Positions 6,212 to 53,397 of a DNA stretch of 64,000 nucleotides are shown here, piece by piece. Numbering within the stretch: the stretch's first letter is position 1; each line of letters starts with the position of its first letter. The notes beneath the pieces were generated by a model. That model worked only from the letters and a program-made list of their open reading frames with translations. It ran no database searches and was not told the origin of the DNA. The stretch covers positions 43-64,042 of the forward strand of contig JAQURX010000005.1 of the NCBI GenBank assembly GCA_028715415.1. The letters run 5' to 3'. The stretch comes from Candidatus Omnitrophota bacterium. GTDB taxonomy: Bacteria; Omnitrophota; Gorgyraeia; Gygaellales; Profunditerraquicolaceae. Both the position numbers and the translations under genes were made by a program.

Positions 6212-7420
6212 TTATCCCGTTTTTCCAAAGACTATGCAGCAGTTGTTGCCGCCGAAGGCAAAGGCGTTGTTGAGTGCTGTGTTAATTTTAAGTTTTCTTG
6301 CTGTGTTTGGTACGCAGTCAATGTCGCATTCAGGGTCAGGTTCAGTAAAATTGATTGTCGGAGGCAAGACTCCTTCTTTAATCGCCATGCAGCATGCAGC
6401 TGCTTCAATGGCACTCGCAGCCCCCATGCAGTGGCCAAGCATTGATTTACTTGAGCTAACAGGTAGTTTTCTTTCTCCGAAAACTTCTTTTATGGCAGTA
6501 GATTCTTCTTTGTCATTTTGAGTTGTTCCTGTGCCATGGGCATTGATATAGTCAATATCATCCGGCTTAAGCCCGGAGTCGTTTATTGCTTTCTCCATTG
6601 CTTTTCTAATCCCTCTTCTTGCCGGGATAGTCATATGATGAGCATCGCAAGATAAGCCGGCTCCGAGAATCTCCGCGTATATGGGAGCTTTTCTTTCAAT
6701 AGCTTTTTCTAAGGGCTCTAGAATAAGAATGCCTGCGCCTTCCCCCAGAAGCATCCCTTTCCTGTTCTTGTCAAATGGGGCGCAAATATCAGGCGCCATC
6801 GCGTATAATTTCTGGAATCCTTGGTATGCAATCCTTGATAGTGCCTCAGCGCCTCCCGCAATCGCTAAATCTACCTGTCCGGTTTTGATTAAATCAAAGC
6901 CATAGCTTAGGCTATAATTTCCCGCAGAACAGGCATTGGGGATTAAAAGATTAGCCCCTTTTGTTTTAAAGAAATATCCGGTGTTTCTTGCAATTGAAGG
7001 AGAGAAAATATTAAGTAGGAATTTATTTGTCAGGCTGTCAGGGTCATTTTCCAAAATCATGTGTGATGACAGGTCTATAGTATTTCCTTCAGGAATAGTT
7101 ACGCCAATAACAAATGCCGGCTCTGTTTTTCTGATTGACGGGATGGGGATTTTTGCGTCTTTTAATGCAAGTTTTGTCGCGGCAATTGAAAAAACTGAAG
7201 CTCGCCCCATAAATTTCAGCATTTGTTTGGGGACAAAATCTTCGGGATTAAAGTTTTTTACTTCTCCCCCGTTTTTGCGGGTAAATTTGGAGGTGTCAAA
7301 CAAATCAACTTTGCTTATTCCGGACTTTCCTAAGATTAAATTCTTCCAAAAATCTTCTATTCCTATCCCAATTGAGGAAACAATTCCTAATCCGGTTACC
7401 ACAACTCTTCTATTCATCAT
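6212..7420 (-). CDS. fabF: Beta-ketoacyl-ACP synthase II-like condensing enzyme (intact Cys-His-His triad)
   Basis: Motifs PNACSAGNYSL (Cys), YINAHGTGTTQND (His) and KSMLGHCMGAAS (His). Start set at the MMNRR ATGs (7420/7417), because the track's MTPLI extension lies inside a repeat element. Confidence 0.8.
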   Translation of the reverse strand: MMNRRVVVTGLGIVSSIGIGIEDFWKNLILGKSGISKVDLFDTSKFTRKNGGEVKNFNPEDFVPKQMLKFMGRASVFSIAATKLALKDAKIPIPSIRKTEPAFVIGVTIPEGNTIDLSSHMILENDPDSLTNKFLLNIFSPSIARNTGYFFKTKGANLLIPNACSAGNYSLSYGFDLIKTGQVDLAIAGGAEALSRIAYQGFQKLYAMAPDICAPFDKNRKGMLLGEGAGILILEPLEKAIERKAPIYAEILGAGLSCDAHHMTIPARRGIRKAMEKAINDSGLKPDDIDYINAHGTGTTQNDKEESTAIKEVFGERKLPVSSSKSMLGHCMGAASAIEAAACCMAIKEGVLPPTINFTEPDPECDIDCVPNTARKLKINTALNNAFAFGGNNCCIVFGKTG

Positions 7421-7429
7421 AATTAATGG

Positions 7430-7494
7430 TGTCATTCCCGCGAAAGCGGGAATCTACGCTATTTTCTGGATCTTTGCTTTCGCAGGGATGACAA
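7430..7494. repeat. Palindromic repeat unit A (hairpin H1 + inverted diverged copy H2; tgtcat...atgaca termini)
   Basis: tgtcattcccgcGAAAgcgggaatctacg is a perfect 8-bp stem with a GAAA loop. The second arm ctggatctttgcTTTCgcagggatgacaa is a degenerate inverted copy. Copies recur at 16.5 kb and 52.3 kb. Confidence 0.8.
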
Positions 7495-7503
7495 TATTCA
7501 TCC

Positions 7504-7553
7504 GTCATTCCCGCCCCTGCTTCCGCAGGGGTAAACTCCAGTGGGAATCTACG
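7504..7553. repeat. Repeat unit B (H1 stem with nested inner hairpin cccctgcTTCCgcagggg)
   Basis: gtcattcccg cccctgcttccgcagggg taaactccag tgggaatctacg; a second copy at 16549 carries compensatory changes in the inner stem. Confidence 0.8.
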
Positions 7554-7566
7554 ACATAACCTTGTT

Positions 7567-8016
7567 TTATTCTTTTGGTTTGATTCCAAAGACGATGTTA
7601 GCTTCAACGACTGTTTCGTTATCAACTAATGCGCAGGCTTTGACAATTCCGGCGTTGCCAAGGATTTTCTCACCTTTTATCTTTAAAATTAACTGATCTC
7701 CGGGCCGCACCGGCTTTAAGAATTTAGATTCAACTCTACCTAAAAAGTATGTCGGGTGTTTTTCTGCGATTTCAGGTTTAAGTGCAGCAAAAAGAAGTAT
7801 GCTGGCCTGCGCAAGCGCTTCAATGATTACAACCCCCGGCAGGATAGGATTCCCCGGAAAGTGCCCCTGAAAAAAATAATCATTCATAGTGACATTTTTT
7901 AAGCAAGTAATTTCTCTTGAAGGCGCATTTATTTCAAGGACAGAATCAACAAAAAGAAAAGGGTATTTCTGCGGCAAGATTGATTGGATTTTATTTATAT
8001 CCCAGATAGCAGGCAT
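7567..8016 (-). CDS. fabZ: 3-hydroxyacyl-ACP dehydratase FabZ-like (hot-dog fold)
   Basis: FFQGHFPGNPILPGVVIIEALAQ active-site motif; 149 aa. Confidence 0.8.
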   Translation of the reverse strand: MPAIWDINKIQSILPQKYPFLFVDSVLEINAPSREITCLKNVTMNDYFFQGHFPGNPILPGVVIIEALAQASILLFAALKPEIAEKHPTYFLGRVESKFLKPVRPGDQLILKIKGEKILGNAGIVKACALVDNETVVEANIVFGIKPKE

Positions 8017-9037: not shown

Positions 9038-10276
9038 TTAATTTTCCGTAAATTTTTCGAGGATACAGGCGCTATTGTATCCTCCTGGGCCAAAAGAAGT
9101 AATTAATGCAATCTTTACGTCTTTTTTCTCCCCTTTGTTAGGAACACAGTTGATTTCGCACTCCGGGTCTTTTTCTTCATAGTTTATTGTCGGTGGAATA
9201 ATTCCACGCTGCATTGCTCCTATGCAAGAAGCAACCTGAAGAGCACCTGAAGCTGCAAAAGTTTCACCAATCATGGACTTAATTGAACTAACTGGGATGT
9301 CTCTTAATTCTTTTCCAAAGATTTTATTAAGGACTTTTACCTCTGTTTTATCCAAATCCTGAGTTGAATTAGCGCAGCTTGAGATATAGTCTATATCTTT
9401 AATGTCGATTCCCGCTTCTTTAATTGCTTGAATTATTGCGATCTCAAGGCCTTCTCCTTGCGGGTTAATCGTTCCCATCTTACTCGCGTCAAAATAATTA
9501 CAAACACTTTTAATTTTAGCGTAAATATTAGCGCCTCGTTCCCTTGCCCTATCCTTTTCTTCTAGAGAAAAAACACAGGCAGCTTCTCCTAGTATAGGGC
9601 CATTTCTTTTTTTGTCAAAGGGGCAGCTTAATTCTTTTCCGTTTAACCCGGCCATGTAGCCAAGTTTTTGTAAGCCCATAAATAATGATGAGGTTAAAGT
9701 TTCGACACCTGCAGAGAAAATAATTTCTGCTTTGTTTGTTTTCAGGGCGTCTATGGAGTATTTCAACGCGGCAAGGCCCGAACAAAACCCCGTGCTCACT
9801 GTTGCATTAAAGCCTTGTATATTAAAACGGATTGAAACTTGAGAAGAAGCTGCGTTCATTACTGTTGAGGGGAAAAGCGCCGGGCTTGCGAATTCTATGC
9901 CTTCGGTAAATACTTCTTTGTCAAATTCCGTAATAGACCATAAATGCGGAAAGGTTGTCCCTGTGCAAACGCCGAATTTATCCGTATTCTCATCTGTTAT
10001 TTCAATTTTAGCATCGTCAATGGCAAGTTTTGCCGCTGATATTAAAAATAATGCGCTTCTATCTAAATTCCTCAAACCCTTAGCGCCTAAGATTTCTTTT
10101 GGATCAAAGTTTTTAGCTTCGCAGGCAGATTTTACTTTAAATTCATCTGTGTTGAAGAAAGAAATCTGTGTTGATGAATTTAAGCCGTTTTCAAGAGCCT
10201 GCCAGAACTCAGCCTTACCGATTCCGTTCGGGGCAATTACCCCAATTCCTGTAATAACAGTTTCAAAGTTTTTCAT
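9038..10276 (-). CDS. Ketosynthase-like protein with Cys retained but both catalytic His replaced (C-C-E; chain-length-factor / KS0-like)
   Basis: Full thiolase/KAS fold (MKNFETVITGIGVIAPNGIG..., VSTGFCSGLAALKY) but YISSCANST replaces YINAHGTGT and KSMIGETFAASG replaces KSMxGHxxGAAG. Confidence 0.7.
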   Translation of the reverse strand: MKNFETVITGIGVIAPNGIGKAEFWQALENGLNSSTQISFFNTDEFKVKSACEAKNFDPKEILGAKGLRNLDRSALFLISAAKLAIDDAKIEITDENTDKFGVCTGTTFPHLWSITEFDKEVFTEGIEFASPALFPSTVMNAASSQVSIRFNIQGFNATVSTGFCSGLAALKYSIDALKTNKAEIIFSAGVETLTSSLFMGLQKLGYMAGLNGKELSCPFDKKRNGPILGEAACVFSLEEKDRARERGANIYAKIKSVCNYFDASKMGTINPQGEGLEIAIIQAIKEAGIDIKDIDYISSCANSTQDLDKTEVKVLNKIFGKELRDIPVSSIKSMIGETFAASGALQVASCIGAMQRGIIPPTINYEEKDPECEINCVPNKGEKKDVKIALITSFGPGGYNSACILEKFTEN

Positions 10277-10279
10277 AGT

Positions 10280-11299
10280 TTATCTTACCGGTGCATGCGG
10301 CGCCCATACCTCAAAGCCATGTTGGACCGCAATATCAGAAATTTCTTCCATTTTGTCAGAACACGAACTTTCTCCTAAATAATGATGGAATGATTTCTCT
10401 TCAAAAGTTAAAAGCATTGTTTCTGCCATAGAGGCATTAATCACGCCTTTGGGAAGCCCTAAGTCAATATTAATATCTTCCGGAAACGGAACTTTTACTA
10501 AGGTGCCGCTAATTACCGGAAGCCCTTTGCAGATGTTATTTTCTGATTTTGAATTTAAAGTAGCATCGCAAAAGATCGGCTTTTTTTCTAATTCGGAAAC
10601 CATTTTTTCTAAATTCACTTTTGAAAAATCCAGATTAATGATGATATCAGCCTCTTTAATAGCTTTATTTATATCTGGTTCTACGCAAATCATGGTATTG
10701 TTATTGTGTAAAATTGTTTCTTCTATTCTTTGTAATATTTTAGGATCATCTCCTTGCAGGATAATTTTGTTTATGCAGCTTGAAAATCGTTCCGAGCAAA
10801 GTTTGCCTATTGAGCAGTCCGCACCGATTATGACAAGGGTTAAATTATTTGTTTTTAAGCCTCTTTCTCTGCAGGTCCTATAAATAGTTTCATAAATTGC
10901 CCAAGCGGAATAATATTTTCCGTTTGTTACTGGAAGAGGAACCTTTTCTTCAATTTTTTGATGATTTTTTTCTGCCAGGTATCCTGCATATCCGCTCAAG
11001 CCTAAAAGGCTTGCTTTAAGCTGCTTTGCAATGTTACCTGCTGAGTAAATCGTGTTTAGAACGAATTCTTCATCAAGGTTTGGAGCCTCGTTGTCTAATA
11101 ATGGGCTAATGATAACATGGCCTTGTATTTCTTTTCCTTGAGTTGATTGGATACGTTTTAGATGAATTACTTTGCAAGGATAACTTCCTTTGGAGAACAT
11201 TTTCGCAAAAAAACCGGGCATGCGTTTAAATGCAGGCCAGAATCCTTTAGCTTCATCCAGATTTGTCGGGTTTACTACAAAAGCAAAGCTTTTTATCAT
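10280..11299 (-). CDS. Rossmann-fold protein resembling long-chain acyl-ACP reductase (AAR) / shikimate-DH-like family
   Basis: By recollection, similar to cyanobacterial AAR. N-terminal GKEIQGHVIISPLLDNE compares to AAR GKVIHGRYIESCFLPE. NAD fold LVIIGADCSIGKLCSERF. C-terminal ASMAETMLLTFEEKSF...EEISDIAVQHGFEV compares to AAR ACFAEAMLLEFEGW...EAIGEASVRHGFQP. Confidence 0.45.
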   Translation of the reverse strand: MIKSFAFVVNPTNLDEAKGFWPAFKRMPGFFAKMFSKGSYPCKVIHLKRIQSTQGKEIQGHVIISPLLDNEAPNLDEEFVLNTIYSAGNIAKQLKASLLGLSGYAGYLAEKNHQKIEEKVPLPVTNGKYYSAWAIYETIYRTCRERGLKTNNLTLVIIGADCSIGKLCSERFSSCINKIILQGDDPKILQRIEETILHNNNTMICVEPDINKAIKEADIIINLDFSKVNLEKMVSELEKKPIFCDATLNSKSENNICKGLPVISGTLVKVPFPEDINIDLGLPKGVINASMAETMLLTFEEKSFHHYLGESSCSDKMEEISDIAVQHGFEVWAPHAPVR

Positions 11300-11599: not shown

Positions 11600-11620
11600 T
11601 AAAGAATTTAGGGACAAAAT

Positions 11621-11690
11621 AAAGGGGACGGTTCTATTTTTTTTGGTTTTCTTGACCGTAAAAATAGAACCGTCCCCTTTATTTACCTTT
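11621..11690 (-). terminator. Rho-independent terminator (18-21 bp perfect stem, T-tract); potentially bidirectional
   Basis: ggggacggttctattttt (11624-11641) pairs perfectly with aaaaatagaaccgtcccc (11660-11677), 18-nt loop. On the minus strand it is followed by tttattttg, immediately after the stop of the lipoyl-domain gene. Confidence 0.7.
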
Positions 11691-16025: not shown

Positions 16026-16526
16026 CTAGACCTTTAATTCCTTATATTTCTTGAAATAATTAACTACTCCGCCTTCTTCTAATAATTTCTGCATAAATGC
16101 AGGTAGAGGTTTAATCTTAAATTCTATATTCTTACTTGTATTTTTTACAATACCGTTATCTAAGTCAACTTCAAGGATGTCAAACTCATTAATCTTATCA
16201 GTATCCAGTTCAATCAAGAGAAGGCCGATATTAAATGCATTGCGGTAGAAAATCCGGGCAAAAGATTTCGCTACTACTGCTACTATCCCCGATTCTTTAA
16301 TAACTAAAGGCGCTTGTTCTCTTGACGAGCCCATTCCGAAATTCTTACCGGCAACGATTATTGATTTTCCGGGTGTAATCTTTGAAGGGAAGCTCGGGTC
16401 AATATCTTCCATGATATGTTTCGCGAGCTCCTTAATATCAGTAATTGCGAATTTATAACGCCCGGAAATAATAAAATCCGTGTTAATGTTATCTCCTAAT
16501 TTTATTGCTTTGCCGTCAAATTTCAT
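16026..16526 (-). CDS. leuD: 3-isopropylmalate dehydratase/homoaconitase small subunit (short LeuD type)
   Basis: 166 aa, IKLGDNINTDFIISGRY...; AAAGGA Shine-Dalgarno upstream. Confidence 0.75.
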   Translation of the reverse strand: MKFDGKAIKLGDNINTDFIISGRYKFAITDIKELAKHIMEDIDPSFPSKITPGKSIIVAGKNFGMGSSREQAPLVIKESGIVAVVAKSFARIFYRNAFNIGLLLIELDTDKINEFDILEVDLDNGIVKNTSKNIEFKIKPLPAFMQKLLEEGGVVNYFKKYKELKV

Positions 16527-16547
16527 TTTAAGTATCCTTTACTCATC

Positions 16548-16633
16548 TGTCATTCCCGCCCCTGTTTCCACAGGGGTAAACTCCAGCGGGAATCTATGTT
16601 ACATCCTGGATCCCTGCTTTCGCAGGGATGACA
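16548..16633. repeat. Repeat locus: unit B' + hairpin H2 between pilT and leuD
   Basis: tgtcattcccg cccctgtttccacagggg taaactccag cgggaatctatg ... ctggatccctgcTTTCgcagggatgaca. The inner stem shows compensatory g>t/c>a relative to the 7504 copy. Confidence 0.8.
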
Positions 16634-16640
16634 ACTTTTT

Positions 16641-17687
16641 TTAGAGCTGTTTAAATTCGTCTAGATTCTTTACTTTTGACATTGCCACGTCTAAGGTTAT
16701 TAATCCTTTTTGAGTCAGTTCCTTTAATGACTTATCCATGGTTTTCATTCCGAATTGAGATCCGGTTTGCATGATTGTCGGGATTTGCTCAATTTCCTGT
16801 TCACGGATTAAATTTCTAATTGCAGGAGTTGCAACCATGATTTCATTTGCCATAACACGGCCTTTGCCTGAAGCATGCGGAAGCAATAACTGGGAAACAA
16901 CTGCCTGTAATGAGTCTGCTAGCTGCAATTTTACCTGCATCTGTTGGTGTGGAGGGAAAACATCTATAATTCTTTGAACTGTCTGAGGAGCATCAGGGGT
17001 ATGTAATGTTGCCAAAACCAAGTGCCCGGTTTCTGCTGCTGTTAAAGTAGTGGAGATTGTTTCAAGGTCACGCATCTCTCCTACTATGATTACGTTAGGA
17101 TCCTGCCTTAAAGCTCGTTTCAGGGATTCAGCAAATGAATGCGTGTCAGCGTAAACTTCTCTCTGCTTGATAACACTCTTTTTATTACTGAAAACAAATT
17201 CAATAGGGTCTTCAATAGAAACTATTAAACACTCTCTTTCATTATTAATCTGGTCTATCATGGCGGCAAGGGTAGTAGTTTTACCCATGCCGGTTGGCCC
17301 AGTAACAAGGACTAAGCCGTTTGGACGGCGAGCTAACTCAGGAATAATTGCTGGAAGGCCAAGGCTTTCCATAGTAGGGATAACTAAAGGCACACGCCTG
17401 CAGGCTGCTTCAACAGAGCCTTTTTGCATGTGGATATTGACTCTGAACCTGTCCAAATCCGGAAGCGCTAAAGAAAAGTCCAGCTCAAGGTCTCTTTCAA
17501 ACATTTCTTTTTGCGTATTTGTCAAAATGCCGTAAATCATTTTCTTAAGAGTGTCTTTGGACATGACAGGAAGGGTTGTGCGGTTTAATTTTCCATCAAT
17601 ACGCAGGATTGGAGGTTCGTTTTCTGTTAAGTGCAGGTCTGAAGCCTGTTTTTCTATACACATTACAAGCAGATCTCTTATCTCCAT
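16641..17687 (-). CDS. pilT: Type IV pilus retraction ATPase PilT
   Basis: 348 aa; MEIRDLL...ASDLHL..., Walker A VTGPTGMGKTTT, His-box and PilT C-terminal motifs. Confidence 0.8.
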   Translation of the reverse strand: MEIRDLLVMCIEKQASDLHLTENEPPILRIDGKLNRTTLPVMSKDTLKKMIYGILTNTQKEMFERDLELDFSLALPDLDRFRVNIHMQKGSVEAACRRVPLVIPTMESLGLPAIIPELARRPNGLVLVTGPTGMGKTTTLAAMIDQINNERECLIVSIEDPIEFVFSNKKSVIKQREVYADTHSFAESLKRALRQDPNVIIVGEMRDLETISTTLTAAETGHLVLATLHTPDAPQTVQRIIDVFPPHQQMQVKLQLADSLQAVVSQLLLPHASGKGRVMANEIMVATPAIRNLIREQEIEQIPTIMQTGSQFGMKTMDKSLKELTQKGLITLDVAMSKVKNLDEFKQL

Positions 17688-18959: not shown

Positions 18960-20135
18960 TTAAATTTCCTTAAGCCAGGTTTCTAACCTATCCATGGCAA
19001 TCGTAAGCTGCTCTATTGAATTAGCGAAACTTATGCGTACATAATTATTAAGCCCGAATCCTATCCCGGGGATTATACTTACAAATTTTTCATCAAGCAT
19101 CCTGTTTGCAAAAGTCATGGAATCAAGTTTTGTTCTTTCAATCCCGCAAAAGATATAAAATGCTCCCTGCGGAACCACATATGAAATTTTATCCATCTTT
19201 TTGAGGCGGGAGATTATATAATTTCTTCTTTTTTCAAATTCTATGCAAAGGCTTTTAGAAAATTCATCAGGAGCGCTTAATGCTGCAACAGCTGCCTTTT
19301 GAGCAATAGAATTTGGGTTTGAAGTTGAATGATCCTGAAGGTTTGAGATTGCATCAGCAATTTCCTTGGGAGCTCCGAGGTATCCAATACGCCAACCAGT
19401 CATGGAGTAACTTTTTGATAGCCCATTAACTGTAATTGTTAGATCGTAGATACTCTTATTCAAGCTGCCGATGGAAAAGTGTTTTAAGTTGTCAAAAATA
19501 ATCTTTTCATAAATCTCGTCGCTTATGACATAGATTTTATTATCCACGCAGATTTGTGCAATTTCTTCCAGTTCATTTTTTTCGTAAACACAACCGGTTG
19601 GATTTGATGGGCTATTTAAAATAAGCACCTTTGTTTTTTTAGTTATTGCTTTTTTAAGTTCCGCAGTGGTAATTTTAAAATTATTTTCCGGCAAGGTTTT
19701 GATAAAAACCGGTTCTCCTTCACACAAATTAACCATTTCCGGATAGCTGACCCAGTAAGGAGACGGAATAATAACCTCATCTCCACGGTCTACCAATACA
19801 AACAAAGCATTAAAAATGCTGTGTTTTGCACCGCAAGAAACTATGATTTGGTTAGGCGCGTATTCTAGTGAATTGTCTTTCTTGAATTTTTCCGAAATGA
19901 GTTTTTTTAATTCAGGAGTTCCTGTGGTAGGGGTATATTTTGTAAAACCGCTTTTAATAGCTTCAATTGCGGCGTTTTTGATAAAATCAGGGGTATCAAA
20001 ATCAGGTTCTCCCGCAGCAAGCGTAACGATATCCTTACCCTCTGCTTTTAGTTTCTTTGCTTTTGATGTTATAGCAAGAGTTAAGGAAGGGTTAATTTTC
20101 TTTAAACGAACGGCTAAAGTTGTATCTGTTCGCAT
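18960..20135 (-). CDS. Class I PLP-dependent aminotransferase (AspC family)
   Basis: 391 aa; LAAGEPDFDTP...; SKSYSMTGWRIGY PLP-lysine region. Confidence 0.8.
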   Translation of the reverse strand: MRTDTTLAVRLKKINPSLTLAITSKAKKLKAEGKDIVTLAAGEPDFDTPDFIKNAAIEAIKSGFTKYTPTTGTPELKKLISEKFKKDNSLEYAPNQIIVSCGAKHSIFNALFVLVDRGDEVIIPSPYWVSYPEMVNLCEGEPVFIKTLPENNFKITTAELKKAITKKTKVLILNSPSNPTGCVYEKNELEEIAQICVDNKIYVISDEIYEKIIFDNLKHFSIGSLNKSIYDLTITVNGLSKSYSMTGWRIGYLGAPKEIADAISNLQDHSTSNPNSIAQKAAVAALSAPDEFSKSLCIEFEKRRNYIISRLKKMDKISYVVPQGAFYIFCGIERTKLDSMTFANRMLDEKFVSIIPGIGFGLNNYVRISFANSIEQLTIAMDRLETWLKEI

Positions 20136-50602: not shown

Positions 50603-51397
50603 TTAATTATTTTTCAGATTTGAGAGATTTGCGAAATCATTAAGGCTCAATGATTCAGGGCGGGTATTCTCATCAATATTAAATTCTTTAAAAAAGTGTA
50701 AAAGTAGTTCTTTAGAAACAACATTTTCAAGGCTGTTCCTTAGGGTTTTTCTTCTTTTATTAAAAGCTGCTCTGATTATCTTAAAAAACCTACCCTCTTC
50801 GTTCAAGTGAACCGGAGGCACTTGCCTTGTTTTTAAAAGCACTAAGCTGGAGTCAACCTTTGGCACTGGGAAAAAACAATTCCTGCTGATTTTAAACATT
50901 ATTTTTGGCTCTGTAAAATACTGTACAAAGCAACTAAATGATCCGTAGTCTTTTGTGCCCGGGCTTGCAATTATTCTCTCAGCAAATTCTTTCTGTACTG
51001 TTAAGAAAGCTTCACTAATAAAATCCCTTGAGTCAATTAATTTCTCAATAATTGGGCTTGATATATAATAAGGGATATTTCCAAATACCTTTATCTTTTG
51101 TTTATGCTTTGCGAATATCTCTTCAATGTTCAGTTTTAGGATATCCTTGTTTATTATTGAAATACTTTTTAAATCACTGAGATTTTCATTTAGTAAATTG
51201 CTTAATACGGTATCAATCTCTACTGCATACACGTGATTTACAAAGCCTGCGATAATGCGGGTTAGCTCTCCTTTGCCGGGCCCTATCTCAAGGACAATGT
51301 CAGAAGGCTTTAACCCAAGGGCATAAATAATTTTATTCCTGATATTCTTGTCAATAAGGAAATTTTGGCCTAACCGTTTTTTTGGTTTAATGTGCAT
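50603..51397 (-). CDS. rsmA: 16S rRNA (adenine1518/1519-N6)-dimethyltransferase RsmA/KsgA
   Basis: LGQNFLIDKNI...VLEIGPGKGELT. Confidence 0.85.
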   Translation of the reverse strand: MHIKPKKRLGQNFLIDKNIRNKIIYALGLKPSDIVLEIGPGKGELTRIIAGFVNHVYAVEIDTVLSNLLNENLSDLKSISIINKDILKLNIEEIFAKHKQKIKVFGNIPYYISSPIIEKLIDSRDFISEAFLTVQKEFAERIIASPGTKDYGSFSCFVQYFTEPKIMFKISRNCFFPVPKVDSSLVLLKTRQVPPVHLNEEGRFFKIIRAAFNKRRKTLRNSLENVVSKELLLHFFKEFNIDENTRPESLSLNDFANLSNLKNN

Positions 51398-52326
51398 TGT
51401 ATGGCAAGTTTAATTGCTTCTATTAAAGAACCTGAGTCTGCTCTATTGGGAGATTTTGCGATGTCAAAAGCAGTGCCATGCAAAGGAGAAGTCCTTACAA
51501 AAGGAAGCCCTATGGTAATATTTACCCCTTCGTTCTTTCCTGTCAACTTAAGAGGTATCAAGGCCTGATCATGGAACATAGCCACTACACAATCAAATTC
51601 CTTGTTGTAGGCCTTATAAATTGCCACATCTGCGGATAAAGGGCCGCTGATGTCAACTTTAGACTTTAGCCTTAAATCTCTAACCGCAGGCTTAATTACC
51701 TTGTTTTCTTCATTTCCAATTACGCCATTATCAGAAGCATGCGGGTTTAAACCGGAAATTACAATTCTTGGTTCTTTTATTGCAAACATTCTTTTTAAAG
51801 CGCAATTTGCCAAAAGCACAGCTTTCTTAATCCCTTGTTTATCGATTCGCAAAGAGACATTGTTTAGAGGAATATGGCGGGTAACAAGCAGAGTTTTTAA
51901 ACAATTATTAATTAACATCATCTCAAACTTGTTTACTTTAAAACTTTCTGCAATATATTCAGTATGCCCGCTAAATTTTATACCTGCCCTATTAATGGCT
52001 TCTTTTGAAACTGGACAGGTAACTAAACAATCTACTTGATTTGTTTTAAGCAAGTCCAATGCTTTATTTAGATATTCTATTGAAGCCCTGCCGTATTCTT
52101 TCTTTATCTTTCCAAAAGAAAAGCCCTTCCGGGGAACATTATCTAAATCAATGAGCTTTACATTGCTAAACTTATGCTTGTGCCAGCCAACTTTGTTAAG
52201 CACAAACTCAGAGCCAATTATTGTAAAATCTGCACATCTATTTAACTTCCTAAGGGCTTTAACGAGAATCACCGGGCCAATCCCTGAAGGATCCCCCATT
52301 GTTATGCAAACTTTGATTTTTTTCAT
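51370..52326 (-). CDS. pdxA: 4-hydroxythreonine-4-phosphate dehydrogenase PdxA
   Basis: ITMGDPSGIGPVILVKAL...; HGTAFDIA; surA-pdxA-rsmA linkage as in E. coli. Confidence 0.85.
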   Translation of the reverse strand: MKKIKVCITMGDPSGIGPVILVKALRKLNRCADFTIIGSEFVLNKVGWHKHKFSNVKLIDLDNVPRKGFSFGKIKKEYGRASIEYLNKALDLLKTNQVDCLVTCPVSKEAINRAGIKFSGHTEYIAESFKVNKFEMMLINNCLKTLLVTRHIPLNNVSLRIDKQGIKKAVLLANCALKRMFAIKEPRIVISGLNPHASDNGVIGNEENKVIKPAVRDLRLKSKVDISGPLSADVAIYKAYNKEFDCVVAMFHDQALIPLKLTGKNEGVNITIGLPFVRTSPLHGTAFDIAKSPNRADSGSLIEAIKLAIQCTLNQKNG

Positions 52327-52334
52327 TGGTTTTT

Positions 52335-52398
52335 TGTCATTCCCGTGGAAACGGGAATCTACGCTATTTCCTGGATACCTGCTTTCGCAGGTATGACA
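52335..52398. repeat. Palindromic repeat unit A'' (H1' + H2'') directly upstream of the pdxA start
   Basis: tgtcattcccgTggaaAcgggaatctacgctatttcctggatAcctgctttcgcaggTatgaca. Both stems carry compensatory substitutions relative to the 7430 copy. Confidence 0.8.
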
Positions 52399-52428
52399 AG
52401 ACTAAAAGGTATGACGGATTAAACAGAT

Positions 52429-53397
52429 TTATTGCATGATTTTTATATAGGAATTATTCTTAATTTCAGCAAGCCACTTTTTCAGCTGCTCTTCTTTTTT
52501 CTTTTCATAAAGAAAGTTTTGAATCTTGTCTTGAACTTGCGACAGGCTAACCTGTTCAGGGGCAGATATGCTGCTTAACCTAAAAACAAAACATTGGCCG
52601 TCAATTTCAACAGGATCAGAGACTTCTCCAACATTCAATTTATAGACAATATCGGAGATTTCCTTTTTTAATTCTTCGTCTTTGGAGACTTTCAAGTTGT
52701 TAACAACCAGAGGATACCTCGTGGCAAGGCTTGTGAGCTTTTCGCCCCTTCTTAGATTATAGACCAAGGAATCGGCTTGATCCTTATTTTCAATATTAAT
52801 GACATCTAAATCACGGATTTCTCCGGTATTAAACTCATTGGGATGTGCATTGTAATAACTAGTAACTTCTTCCGGACTAACTACAATTCTGCTCATAACC
52901 TTAAACTCCAGAATATTACTCATAAGGATATGATCCCTAATCTTATTTTCTAAATCTGCCTGAACAAGTCCTTGTTTAGCCAGCGCTTGCTGGAATGCCG
53001 CATCAGAGCCGTATTTCTTCTTGATCTCATTAATTTTATCTTTAATCTTGCCTGCATCAGGAATAATGCTTATAGTTTTTTTAGGGGCTATTTCAATCTT
53101 CCCATCGTTTTTTCTTGCTTCTTGTAAGATAAGACGGTCATCAATTAATTTATTCAACAAATCCATTTTCAATTCATTTACTTTTTCTTCTAGCTCTTTC
53201 CCGCTAAATTGCTCAGAATACTGAAGCCGGATAAAATTAACAAAATCCTTCAGGTCTTTTTGAGTAATGCTTTCTTTATTAACTACGGCAATAATTTTAT
53301 CTTCCGCTAAAGAATTCTTTAAAGGAAAAACAAAAAGCATGCTTAGTAAGCAAAAAAAGCAAAATTTAATTTTGTTTATCATTAAAGACTCCGGCAT
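52429..53397 (-). CDS. surA: SurA-like periplasmic chaperone / parvulin-type PPIase-domain protein
   Basis: Signal peptide MINKIKFCFFCLLSMLFVFPL, SurA N-domain-like region, degenerate PpiC-like C-terminal region. Confidence 0.65.
   Translation of the reverse strand: MPESLMINKIKFCFFCLLSMLFVFPLKNSLAEDKIIAVVNKESITQKDLKDFVNFIRLQYSEQFSGKELEEKVNELKMDLLNKLIDDRLILQEARKNDGKIEIAPKKTISIIPDAGKIKDKINEIKKKYGSDAAFQQALAKQGLVQADLENKIRDHILMSNILEFKVMSRIVVSPEEVTSYYNAHPNEFNTGEIRDLDVINIENKDQADSLVYNLRRGEKLTSLATRYPLVVNNLKVSKDEELKKEISDIVYKLNVGEVSDPVEIDGQCFVFRLSSISAPEQVSLSQVQDKIQNFLYEKKKEEQLKKWLAEIKNNSYIKIMQ

Follow-up and report, generated by a model that had tools for sequence, protein, structure and literature searches.

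The window analyzed here is a stretch of 64,000 nucleotides from a metagenome-assembled genome (MAG) of a Candidatus Omnitrophota bacterium (assembly GCA_028715415.1, contig JAQURX010000005.1, positions 43 to 64,042), and our subject is a set of seven hairpin modules that it carries in three intergenic clusters, at 7430-7553, 16548-16633, and 52335-52398. The arrays are strictly intergenic, and all of the neighboring genes are on the minus strand (Table 1). An initial annotation of this DNA had distinguished three module types, H1, H2, and H3, at three sites, and the strings it gave are found where it placed them. H1 (GTCATTCCCGCGAAAGCGGGAATCTA) occurs at 7431-7456 and, with three differences, at 52336-52361; with its flanks it reads TGTCATTCCCGCGAAAGCGGGAATCTACG at site 1, with a variant at site 3. 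The H2 cores lie at 7466-7493, 16606-16633, and 52371-52398, and the flanked form at site 2 is CTGGATCCCTGCTTTCGCAGGGATGACAA, with variants at the other two sites. H2 follows the plan of H1 on the other strand, but its stem is a variant (ATCCCTGC); it reads GTC...C on the minus strand, in agreement with its earlier description as an inverted variant. The H3 cores (7504-7551 and 16549-16596) keep the H1 stem and flanks, the loop being swapped for an H2-like inner hairpin plus TAAACTCCA, and the nested hairpin previously described is seen in both copies. The layout of an array is H1 or H3 ->, an 8-nt spacer, and <- H2; by their GTC...C strand, four modules are on the plus strand (H1 and H3, two each) and three, all H2, on the minus strand. 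Searches of the window allowing three mismatches found no further copies of H1, H2, or H3, and every search of 100 dinucleotide-preserving shuffles of the window returned zero matches. A covariance model made from copies of the simple hairpin, run over the whole window with filters off, recovered the five simple hairpins plus the inner hairpins of both H3 copies as weak H2-type hits on the minus strand, and nothing further.

Table 1. Hairpin modules, arrays, and flanking genes in the window (stems and loops are given in the module's own orientation; bits are covariance-model scores).
Feature	Position	Strand	Description
Site 1 array	7430..7553		FabA/FabZ-like dehydratase upstream, fabF downstream; spacer 149 bp; array 124 bp
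Site 2 array	16548..16633		pilT-like ATPase upstream, leuD downstream; spacer 114 bp; array 86 bp
Site 3 array	52335..52398		surA-like gene upstream, pdxA downstream; spacer 102 bp; array 64 bp
H1 site 1	7430..7458	+	TGTC-ATTCCCGC-GAAA-GCGGGAAT-C-TACG; NTS orientation on + strand; 46.9 bits
H2 site 1	7465..7493	-	TGTC-ATCCCTGC-GAAA-GCAAAGAT-C-CAGA; inverted variant; two A·C mismatches on - strand; 40.8 bits
H3 site 1	7503..7553	+	inner hairpin CCCCTGC-TTCC-GCAGGGG (7514-7531) plus TAAACTCCA; one outer-stem G·T
H3 site 2	16548..16598	+	inner hairpin CCCCTGT-TTCC-ACAGGGG (16559-16576); C-G to T-A relative to site 1, compensatory
H2 site 2	16605..16633	-	TGTC-ATCCCTGC-GAAA-GCAGGGAT-C-CAGG; top hit of the window, 48.6 bits
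H1 site 3	52335..52363	+	TGTC-ATTCCCGT-GGAA-ACGGGAAT-C-TACG; closing pair T-A, not C-G; loop GGAA; 43.5 bits
H2 site 3	52370..52398	-	TGTC-ATACCTGC-GAAA-GCAGGTAT-C-CAGG; third pair A-T, not C-G; 47.0 bits
fabF-like beta-ketoacyl-ACP synthase	6212..7417	-	PF00109/PF02801 start at residue 3 of the 401-aa version
FabA/FabZ-like dehydratase	7567..8016	-	PF07977, E = 6e-27; stop codon 13 nt from H3 end
leuD (aconitase C-terminal domain)	16026..16526	-	Pfam; downstream of site 2 array
PilT-like T2SSE ATPase	16641..17687	-	PF00437, E = 1e-43; upstream of site 2 array
pdxA	51370..52326	-	PF04166, E = 5e-93; start codon only 8 nt from H1
SurA-like chaperone/PPIase	52429..53397	-	Pfam; upstream of site 3 array

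The family to which these modules belong was reached through a full-text literature search with the H1 core, which led to Neisseria sequences. A 2025 paper (PMC11893778) redefines the old dRS3 repeat (ATTCCC-N8-GGGAAT) within a 28-nt sequence termed NTS, CGTCATTCCCGCGMAVGCGGGAATCYRG, and describes NTS-like "Ssn-related motifs" (SRM) on either side of a small GIY-YIG gene (ssnA, CDD cd10448) in many bacteria. The window's H1, TGTCATTCCCGCGAAAGCGGGAATCTAC, is identical to that Neisseria consensus at 26 of 28 positions, only the first and last bases being different. An NTS in the strict sense has at most one mismatch to the consensus and the best copy here (7430-7457) has two, so the modules are NTS-like rather than NTS proper. 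Both H1 copies contain the 20-bp dRS3 palindrome (ATTCCCGCGAAAGCGGGAAT and ATTCCCGTGGAAACGGGAAT), a form that is fitted neither by H2 (ATCCCTGC...) nor by H3, in which the loop exceeds 8 nt. The published SRM pattern, HGTCWYN(0-2)YYVSBRHN(0-5)WNVSBRGN(0-2)RNCYNB, has a sole exact match in the window, H1 of site 1 (7430-7457), against 0.02 per shuffled window. The GTC before and the C after the palindrome are reported to be the most important positions for cleavage and binding (PMC11893778), and all seven modules, each in its own orientation, carry GTC directly 5' and C directly 3' of the palindrome. By sequence, the modules are members of the dRS3/NTS/SRM family. The initial annotation had likened them to repetitive extragenic palindromic (REP) sequences, bacterial interspersed mosaic elements (BIMEs), or miniature inverted-repeat transposable elements (MITEs), and had said that a match to a known family with a different explanation would count against it; such a match is what was found, and the family is tied to the GIY-YIG nuclease Ssn.

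The window modules share with Neisseria dRS3, NTS, and NIME sequences the ATTCCC-N8-GGGAAT core, the GTC and C flanks, and an intergenic location; the GAAA loop of H1 is among those that the NTS consensus allows, and convergent inverted pairs are also found in NIMEs, where a gonococcal example likewise runs module -> ... <- module. The differences are that the host is an Omnitrophota MAG of 38% GC rather than a betaproteobacterium of 52% GC, that the tail is CTAC or CTAT where NTS has CYRG, and that the inverted modules are only 8 nt apart, compared with 50-150 bp in NIMEs; both the H2 stem variant and the nested H3 fall outside the NTS definition. No Rfam family corresponds to the modules. 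Only two tRNAs pass the gathering threshold in the window, and the Rfam check proposed by the initial annotation gave no usable match at permissive thresholds either: the best on the arrays is FtrB (Francisella sRNA B), at 23.3 bits (7409-7467) and 21.3 bits (52313-52419) against a threshold of 66. These matches may be due to chance, or FtrB itself may hold an SRM-like repeat.

Were the modules classical REP/BIME elements, they would be recognized and mobilized by an enzyme from another part of the genome, a REP-associated tyrosine transposase (RAYT; Y1 HUH family); only the window part of this genome has been seen. Like REPs of gammaproteobacteria, they are short, imperfect extragenic palindromes of 20-30 nt, clustered in arrays of alternating orientation and often lying between co-transcribed genes, so that the earlier description of the arrays as BIME-like holds for their layout, which is equally that of NIMEs; both are also thought to be derived from the ends of an element acting on single-stranded DNA. 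A GTAG head is typical of REPs, and H1 and H3 do start CGTAG on the minus strand. In 326 family copies (selected as described below), however, the tail is CAG 159 times, TAG 25 times, and TAC, which corresponds to that head, only 3 times, so that GTAG may well not be a trait of the family. The RAYT search that had been suggested, a phmmer comparison of limited sensitivity with E. coli RayT (E <= 10), yielded no homolog among the ORFs of the window and of 1.69 Mb of module-bearing loci, and no RAYT gene was detected near any copy, whereas the same loci hold four Ssn-type genes. The class of partner enzyme differs as well, a GIY-YIG nuclease as opposed to an HUH/Y1 transposase, and the partner experimentally shown for the nearly identical NTS is SsnA (PMC11893778). 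We judge a REP/BIME origin to be very improbable. The subterminal hairpins of IS200/IS605 elements provide another parallel in that an enzyme recognizes asymmetric single-stranded DNA hairpins and cuts beside them, but no TnpA or TnpB gene is present here, and the hairpins are free-standing, multi-copy, and nested.

Candidate genes for the enzyme were met in loci fetched by repeat sequence alone. Four of these loci (L024, L073, L116, and L182) contain a GIY-YIG ORF of ~95 amino acids, in each case <100 nt from a module, and the domain was confirmed by Pfam. L116 is of 43% GC and L182 is a Desulfobacteraceae MAG; H3-type modules stand beside the ssn gene in both. Among the matches listed, homologs of ~70% identity are annotated in Omnitrophota, Elusimicrobiota, Patescibacteria, Zixibacteria, cyanobacteria, and others. 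The invariant Tyr/Tyr/Glu residues of the ORFs show a constant offset of +3 from Y6/Y17/E64, the comparison having been made with the published catalytic positions of N. meningitidis SsnA and not with its full sequence. The Ssn-like proteins had no match in PDB, and NCBIfam gave only a sub-threshold group-I-intron endonuclease.

Two Omnitrophota loci show the gene framed by the same types of module as those in the window. In one contig (L205), ssn lies between a module -> 9 nt upstream and a <- module that abuts the stop codon (0 nt). In a complete genome (L206; CP070780.1), the start codon of a 97-amino-acid GIY-YIG gene directly follows an H3 module of the short form (GTCATTCCCGCCCCCGCTTATGCGAGGATAAACTCCAGCGGGAATCTAT), and an inverted H1 comes after the gene. 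This H3 aligns over the whole length of both window H3 copies and differs only within the inner hairpin, the tail TAAACTCCAGCGGGAATCTAT being common to all. The arrangement module -> ssn <- module, as described for SRM, is also present in L024, L116, and L182. The window arrays are convergent as well, with 8 nt where the gene would be, and therefore look like gene-less, miniature derivatives of an ssn element, in the manner of MITEs.

Several further observations were made on the Ssn-type proteins and their surroundings. The proteins are highly conserved across phyla; one from Omnitrophota (P0207) and one with a Bacteroidales annotation share 87% identity (hits P0121-P0339). Ssn-type proteins of Omnitrophota include UCD55040.1 and MFA5119409.1. 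Many are on very short contigs (0.5-2 kb), as expected of multi-copy or recently transferred DNA that breaks assemblies. In L205, tandem repeats of ~60 nt (…CGATAAGAACAGCATTACATGTTCGATAATTTGACGGCAGTTGGTTAGGAA…) at 9900-10000 and 10440-10620 flank the ssn gene and its modules, and no simple module adjoins the other GIY-YIG gene of this contig, at 19476-19766.

Ordinary MITEs, derived from an insertion sequence with a DDE transposase, would be a different matter, the TGTCAT...ATGACA ends then being terminal inverted repeats. The units of H1 or H3 plus H2 are small enough for this (64-86 bp) and do have inverted ends. However, there is no target-site duplication around any of the three arrays, the supposed ends are complete hairpins that are found singly in many genomes, and the only gene repeatedly found between such ends is the GIY-YIG gene. 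Of all the explanations considered, we give this one the least credence.

The stems of the window copies differ from each other by three compensatory changes, all of which had been listed in the initial annotation: the closing pair of H1 (C-G to T-A), the third pair of H2 (C-G to A-T), and one pair of the H3 inner stem (C-G to T-A). It had not listed three uncompensated transitions, all in the site 1 array. Two are in H2 (atcTTtgc/gcaGGgat, giving two T·G pairs on the plus strand), and one is in the outer stem of H3 (...gc/gT..., one G·T pair); each is a wobble on the plus strand and an A·C mismatch on the minus, or mRNA, strand. The covariation check it proposed was run on copies of the family. 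A model-based alignment of 112 hits (65 distinct) had 99% of stem cells paired, with double changes at five of the eight pairs; the 44 double-change cells compare with 9.6 in column shuffles, and none of 500 shuffles reached 44. Such an alignment is of course fitted to structure, and the count was therefore repeated on copies picked by mismatch number alone, a selection that penalizes double changes. Among the 326 oriented, context-unique copies so obtained, 108 non-consensus stem cells were compensated by a Watson-Crick partner and 161 were not (35 G·T, 29 A·C, and 97 other). The second inner hairpin of the long form of H3 described below, which was unconstrained by the search pattern, reads either CCCCGC/GCGGGG or CCCCAC/GTGGGG, mixed forms being almost nil. 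Palindromy is clearly maintained, although descent of subfamilies from a few palindromic founders could contribute to the signal of paired changes. The earlier view that these are one family of hairpin-forming repeats is supported, and paired changes preserve the palindrome both in the window and in hundreds of copies elsewhere.

That view had left open whether the hairpin is selected as RNA or as single-stranded DNA, and it is only the palindromic half of the statement that we can support; the RNA option received no positive support. Every array folds far better than its shuffles (z from -4.2 to -6.3), but it does so on both strands and as DNA or RNA; strong folding is a property of any palindrome and does not discriminate between the two. 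G·T cells are not in excess over A·C cells, and there is consequently no sign that the RNA of one strand is the selected species; together with the changes in the window, which are A·C in the mRNA, the lack of a wobble strand bias argues for selection at the DNA level. In addition, the asymmetric loop is tied to the flanks: 166 of the 326 copies have GAAA on the GTC...C strand, which gives the center GCGAAAGC. According to Hirao and co-workers, d(GCGAAAGC) and d(GCGAAGC) reportedly form extraordinarily stable DNA mini-hairpins, and we take the center of H1 and of most family members to be that same sequence; the mini-hairpin is a biophysical observation on oligonucleotides and not a genetic element. 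SsnA is reported to bind its motif solely as single-stranded DNA, on one strand only, to cut a few nucleotides upstream, and to have no action on RNA or double-stranded DNA (PMC11893778). This published activity, the strand-locked asymmetric loop, and the absent wobble bias favor a role in DNA.

Selection as RNA, with the hairpins serving as 3'-5' exonuclease barriers, processing sites, or translational couplers in polycistronic mRNAs and the resemblance to a DNA family being secondary, nevertheless has points in its favor. The arrays are probably transcribed, given that each occupies a spacer of 102-149 bp with genes of the same direction on both sides; the predicted RNA stabilities are -28 to -53 kcal/mol (z from -4.2 to -5.7), and H2 presents a GAAA loop of the GNRA type in the mRNA. 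REP elements, moreover, stabilize upstream mRNA in E. coli. Against this, all three uncompensated transitions in the window disrupt pairing in the mRNA, and the family as a whole has no strand-specific wobble signature. Both orientations occur within each array, and the modules recur in unrelated surroundings in genomes of many phyla; single-stranded DNA is the only reported substrate of the cognate enzyme (PMC11893778). The arrays lack both an Rfam family and any terminator-like site on the sense strand, the latter also being why we rejected a reading of the arrays as intrinsic terminators. Relatives of the organism, furthermore, get by at the pilT|leuD junction with genes that overlap by 4 bp. 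We consider selection as RNA improbable.

The relatives also bear on the origin of the arrays. The lipoamide dehydrogenase of the window is 100% identical to MDD5431906.1, a protein on a 129-kb contig. The nearest available ones are ~65% identical in lipoamide dehydrogenase and keep the gene order leuC-pilT-leuD-leuB-mdh-lpdA, but at the pilT|leuD junction they have either the 4-bp overlap (L169) or an unrelated 76-bp spacer, and the covariance model found no module at their syntenic loci (~70 kb). As far as sequence comparison goes, the arrays are thus insertions specific to the lineage of the window. The genes flanking each array are probably co-transcribed, judging from the short spacers. 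The initial annotation had stated that all copies are inside co-directional operons and are transcribed; the co-directional genes and short spacers are plain to see, and co-transcription is probable. The longest ORF for fabF would begin at an in-frame ATG (7433-7435) within the GTCAT end of H1 and add six codons, but a start at 7417 fits the Pfam domain better.

Other features around the arrays were recorded in passing. The pilT-like T2SSE gene (16641-17687 in the window; 6303-7349 in L169 and 6226-7272 in L171) separates leuC from leuD, the genes for the two subunits of isopropylmalate isomerase, and this interruption is conserved in the relatives of ~65% identity. The ATGACA end of a module is a -35-like hexamer, and ATGACA-17-TAAAAT (10/12 match; 16553-16525, minus strand) reads into leuD. 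All three arrays are crossed by spurious ORFs (6936-7559, 16480-16644, and 52151-52396, all on the plus strand), whose translations would contain pseudo-peptides of the "IPAKAGI / IPAFAGMT" type, as do ORFs at other loci. GC skew is negative over the whole window (1-64000), and all real-looking genes of at least 120 amino acids are on the minus strand, including ribosomal-protein genes and genes of the size of rpoB and rpoC; the minus strand is therefore probably the leading one, and the GTC...C strands of H1 and H3 would then be on the other strand. With three sites, this placement carries no statistical weight. A perfect 25-nt inverted repeat (AAATAAAGGGGACGGTTCTATTTTT, an 18-nt gap, and its complement; 11617-11684) lies in a 144-bp gene-free gap, and its sequence has no relation to that of the SRM modules. 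Its Rfam hairpin hits are all below threshold (at most 39 bits, for a plastid 3'UTR family whose threshold is 53); the repeat may act as a terminator in both directions or be a palindromic element of another kind.

Outside the window, the exact H1 24-mer was found in 109 stretches of viral or prophage contigs with a GC content of 0.40-0.71, whereas the H3 core had no hits in viral contigs. The latter was present in 56 metagenome contigs from groundwater and sediments (GC 0.29-0.63) and in 32 MAG contigs labeled Nitrospinota, Desulfobacteria, Deltaproteobacteria, Spirochaetia, Aminicenantes, Planctomycetota, and Gammaproteobacteria; a single MAG contributed as many as 11 of these contigs. Going by these matches and their labels, H3 belongs to a nested-hairpin subfamily that occurs in MAGs of at least seven phylum-level groups. 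The junction pattern H1-spacer-H2 gave no hits in 185,579 species-representative genomes, and the exact composite is thus absent from that collection. Most copies of the H3 core are of a long form with two inner hairpins within the outer stem, GTCATTCCCGC-CCCTGCTTCCGCAGGGG-TAAACT-TGTCCCCRCGAAAGYGGGGA-GCGGGAATCCAG; the short form of the window (TAAACTCCAG, tail ATCTA) is in the minority and is mostly found in low-GC contigs. Over all loci, 22 module pairs separated by <30 nt are convergent and only 3 are divergent, which makes the closely spaced convergent pair a recurrent unit.

More elaborate forms were also seen. Half-hairpins are stacked, with two to four 5' halves in tandem (CTTGTCCCCRCGAAA) and then about as many 3' halves (GCGGGGA), in L140 (minus strand, ~2873 in reverse-complement coordinates), L145 (~310-420), L155 (~1090-1290), and L156; L140 and L145 have two halves of each kind, and L155 has four stacked 5' halves. 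Repeated outer 5' halves (GTCATTCCCGCCCC) also occur in these contigs, and the pattern recurs across samples. From their sequence, the stacked forms look as if new hairpins had entered the loops of older ones. Furthermore, the long form of H3 and an inverted hairpin together lie inside a larger conserved unit with inverted ends of its own (...CGGCTTTACAATAATCCTGGAAC, the modules, and ...ATTGTAAAGTCATTG), which was found in L122 (5287-5450) and in about 12 other contigs (L118, L121, L124, L131, L133, L139, L148, L150, L152, L162, and L164) of 0.43-0.63 GC, directly after the stop codon of a host gene. This unit may be a bigger composite element. Neither nested nor stacked forms were found described in the main text of PMC11893778.

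Overall, we think it likely (a probability of about 0.8) that the modules of the window are SRM DNA hairpins of the Ssn system, and that each array derives from an ssn element but is devoid of the gene, and is lodged in an operon spacer of this Omnitrophota lineage. Each module consists of a short palindrome between flanks that are fixed and asymmetric (5'-GTC ... C), and in single-stranded DNA it folds as a hairpin. By analogy with SsnA, a single-domain GIY-YIG endonuclease of ~95 amino acids, Ssn, would bind the hairpin and cut a few nucleotides upstream. In genomes with the enzyme, its gene lies between two convergent modules, and the window arrays, set in three very short spacers between co-directional genes, would be this element minus the gene. 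H3 combines an H1-type outer hairpin with a second, H2-like hairpin in its loop, and belongs to a nested subfamily common to many phyla. The source genome presumably has, or had, a cognate Ssn that acts on the window copies, and these copies may have spread via Ssn or by recombination between copies. Any effect of the transcribed hairpins on mRNA would be a by-product.

Several points weigh against this interpretation. No ssn or other GIY-YIG gene was found in the 64-kb window by a regular expression or by phmmer on its ORFs, a difference from Neisseria. Six of the seven modules, namely the three H2 copies, the site 3 H1 with its GGAA loop, and both H3 copies (i.e., four of the five simple hairpins and all nested ones), are outside the SRM pattern as written, and the CTAC tail of the window is rare, being present in 3 of the 326 family copies. 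Altering the palindrome sequence is reported to abolish SsnA activity (PMC11893778), so that H1 and H2 may need different enzymes. Assignment of the ORFs to the Ssn family rests on their size, the Pfam GIY-YIG domain, the flanking modules, and the invariant Tyr/Tyr/Glu.

A bolder proposal concerns the route by which the repeats spread. An ssn gene with two convergent hairpins might be an active mobile element that moves via single-stranded DNA and prefers the loops of hairpins of its own family; the convergent pairs of the window would then be MITE-like derivatives, H3 and the stacked forms would be footprints of self-insertion, and recent horizontal spread would account for modules and Ssn proteins (the latter up to 87%) being nearly identical across phyla. 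Transposition by the Ssn family is raised in PMC11893778 (2025) only as a hypothesis. We regard the proposal as doubtful, but if it is correct, there would be a transposition mechanism for the Ssn family.

Repeats of this kind have been known since the meningococcal genomes, as dRS3, and in the NTS/SRM-Ssn form since 2025. What is new here is the Omnitrophota host phylum, the very compact convergent pairs in operon spacers, and the nested H3 subfamily across distant phyla; the Ssn/SRM system is thereby extended to Omnitrophota. In Neisseria, cutting by Ssn lowers the integration of transforming DNA that carries the repeat (PMC11893778). Because puzzling "structured" intergenic repeats of an uncultivated phylum are now placed in a family with a known protein partner, annotators should not call them novel riboswitch-like RNAs, and they should likewise skip the spurious ORFs that run across the modules, recognizable by pseudo-peptides such as "VIPAKAGIQ / IPAFAGMT / SFPRKRES". 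For the organism, hairpins placed where tight gene coupling is ancestral (e.g., at pilT/leuD) may alter the mRNA stability or translation of fabF, leuD, and pdxA. For the family, the gene-less convergent pairs and the modules with a hairpin nested in the loop could help in understanding how such repeats multiply.

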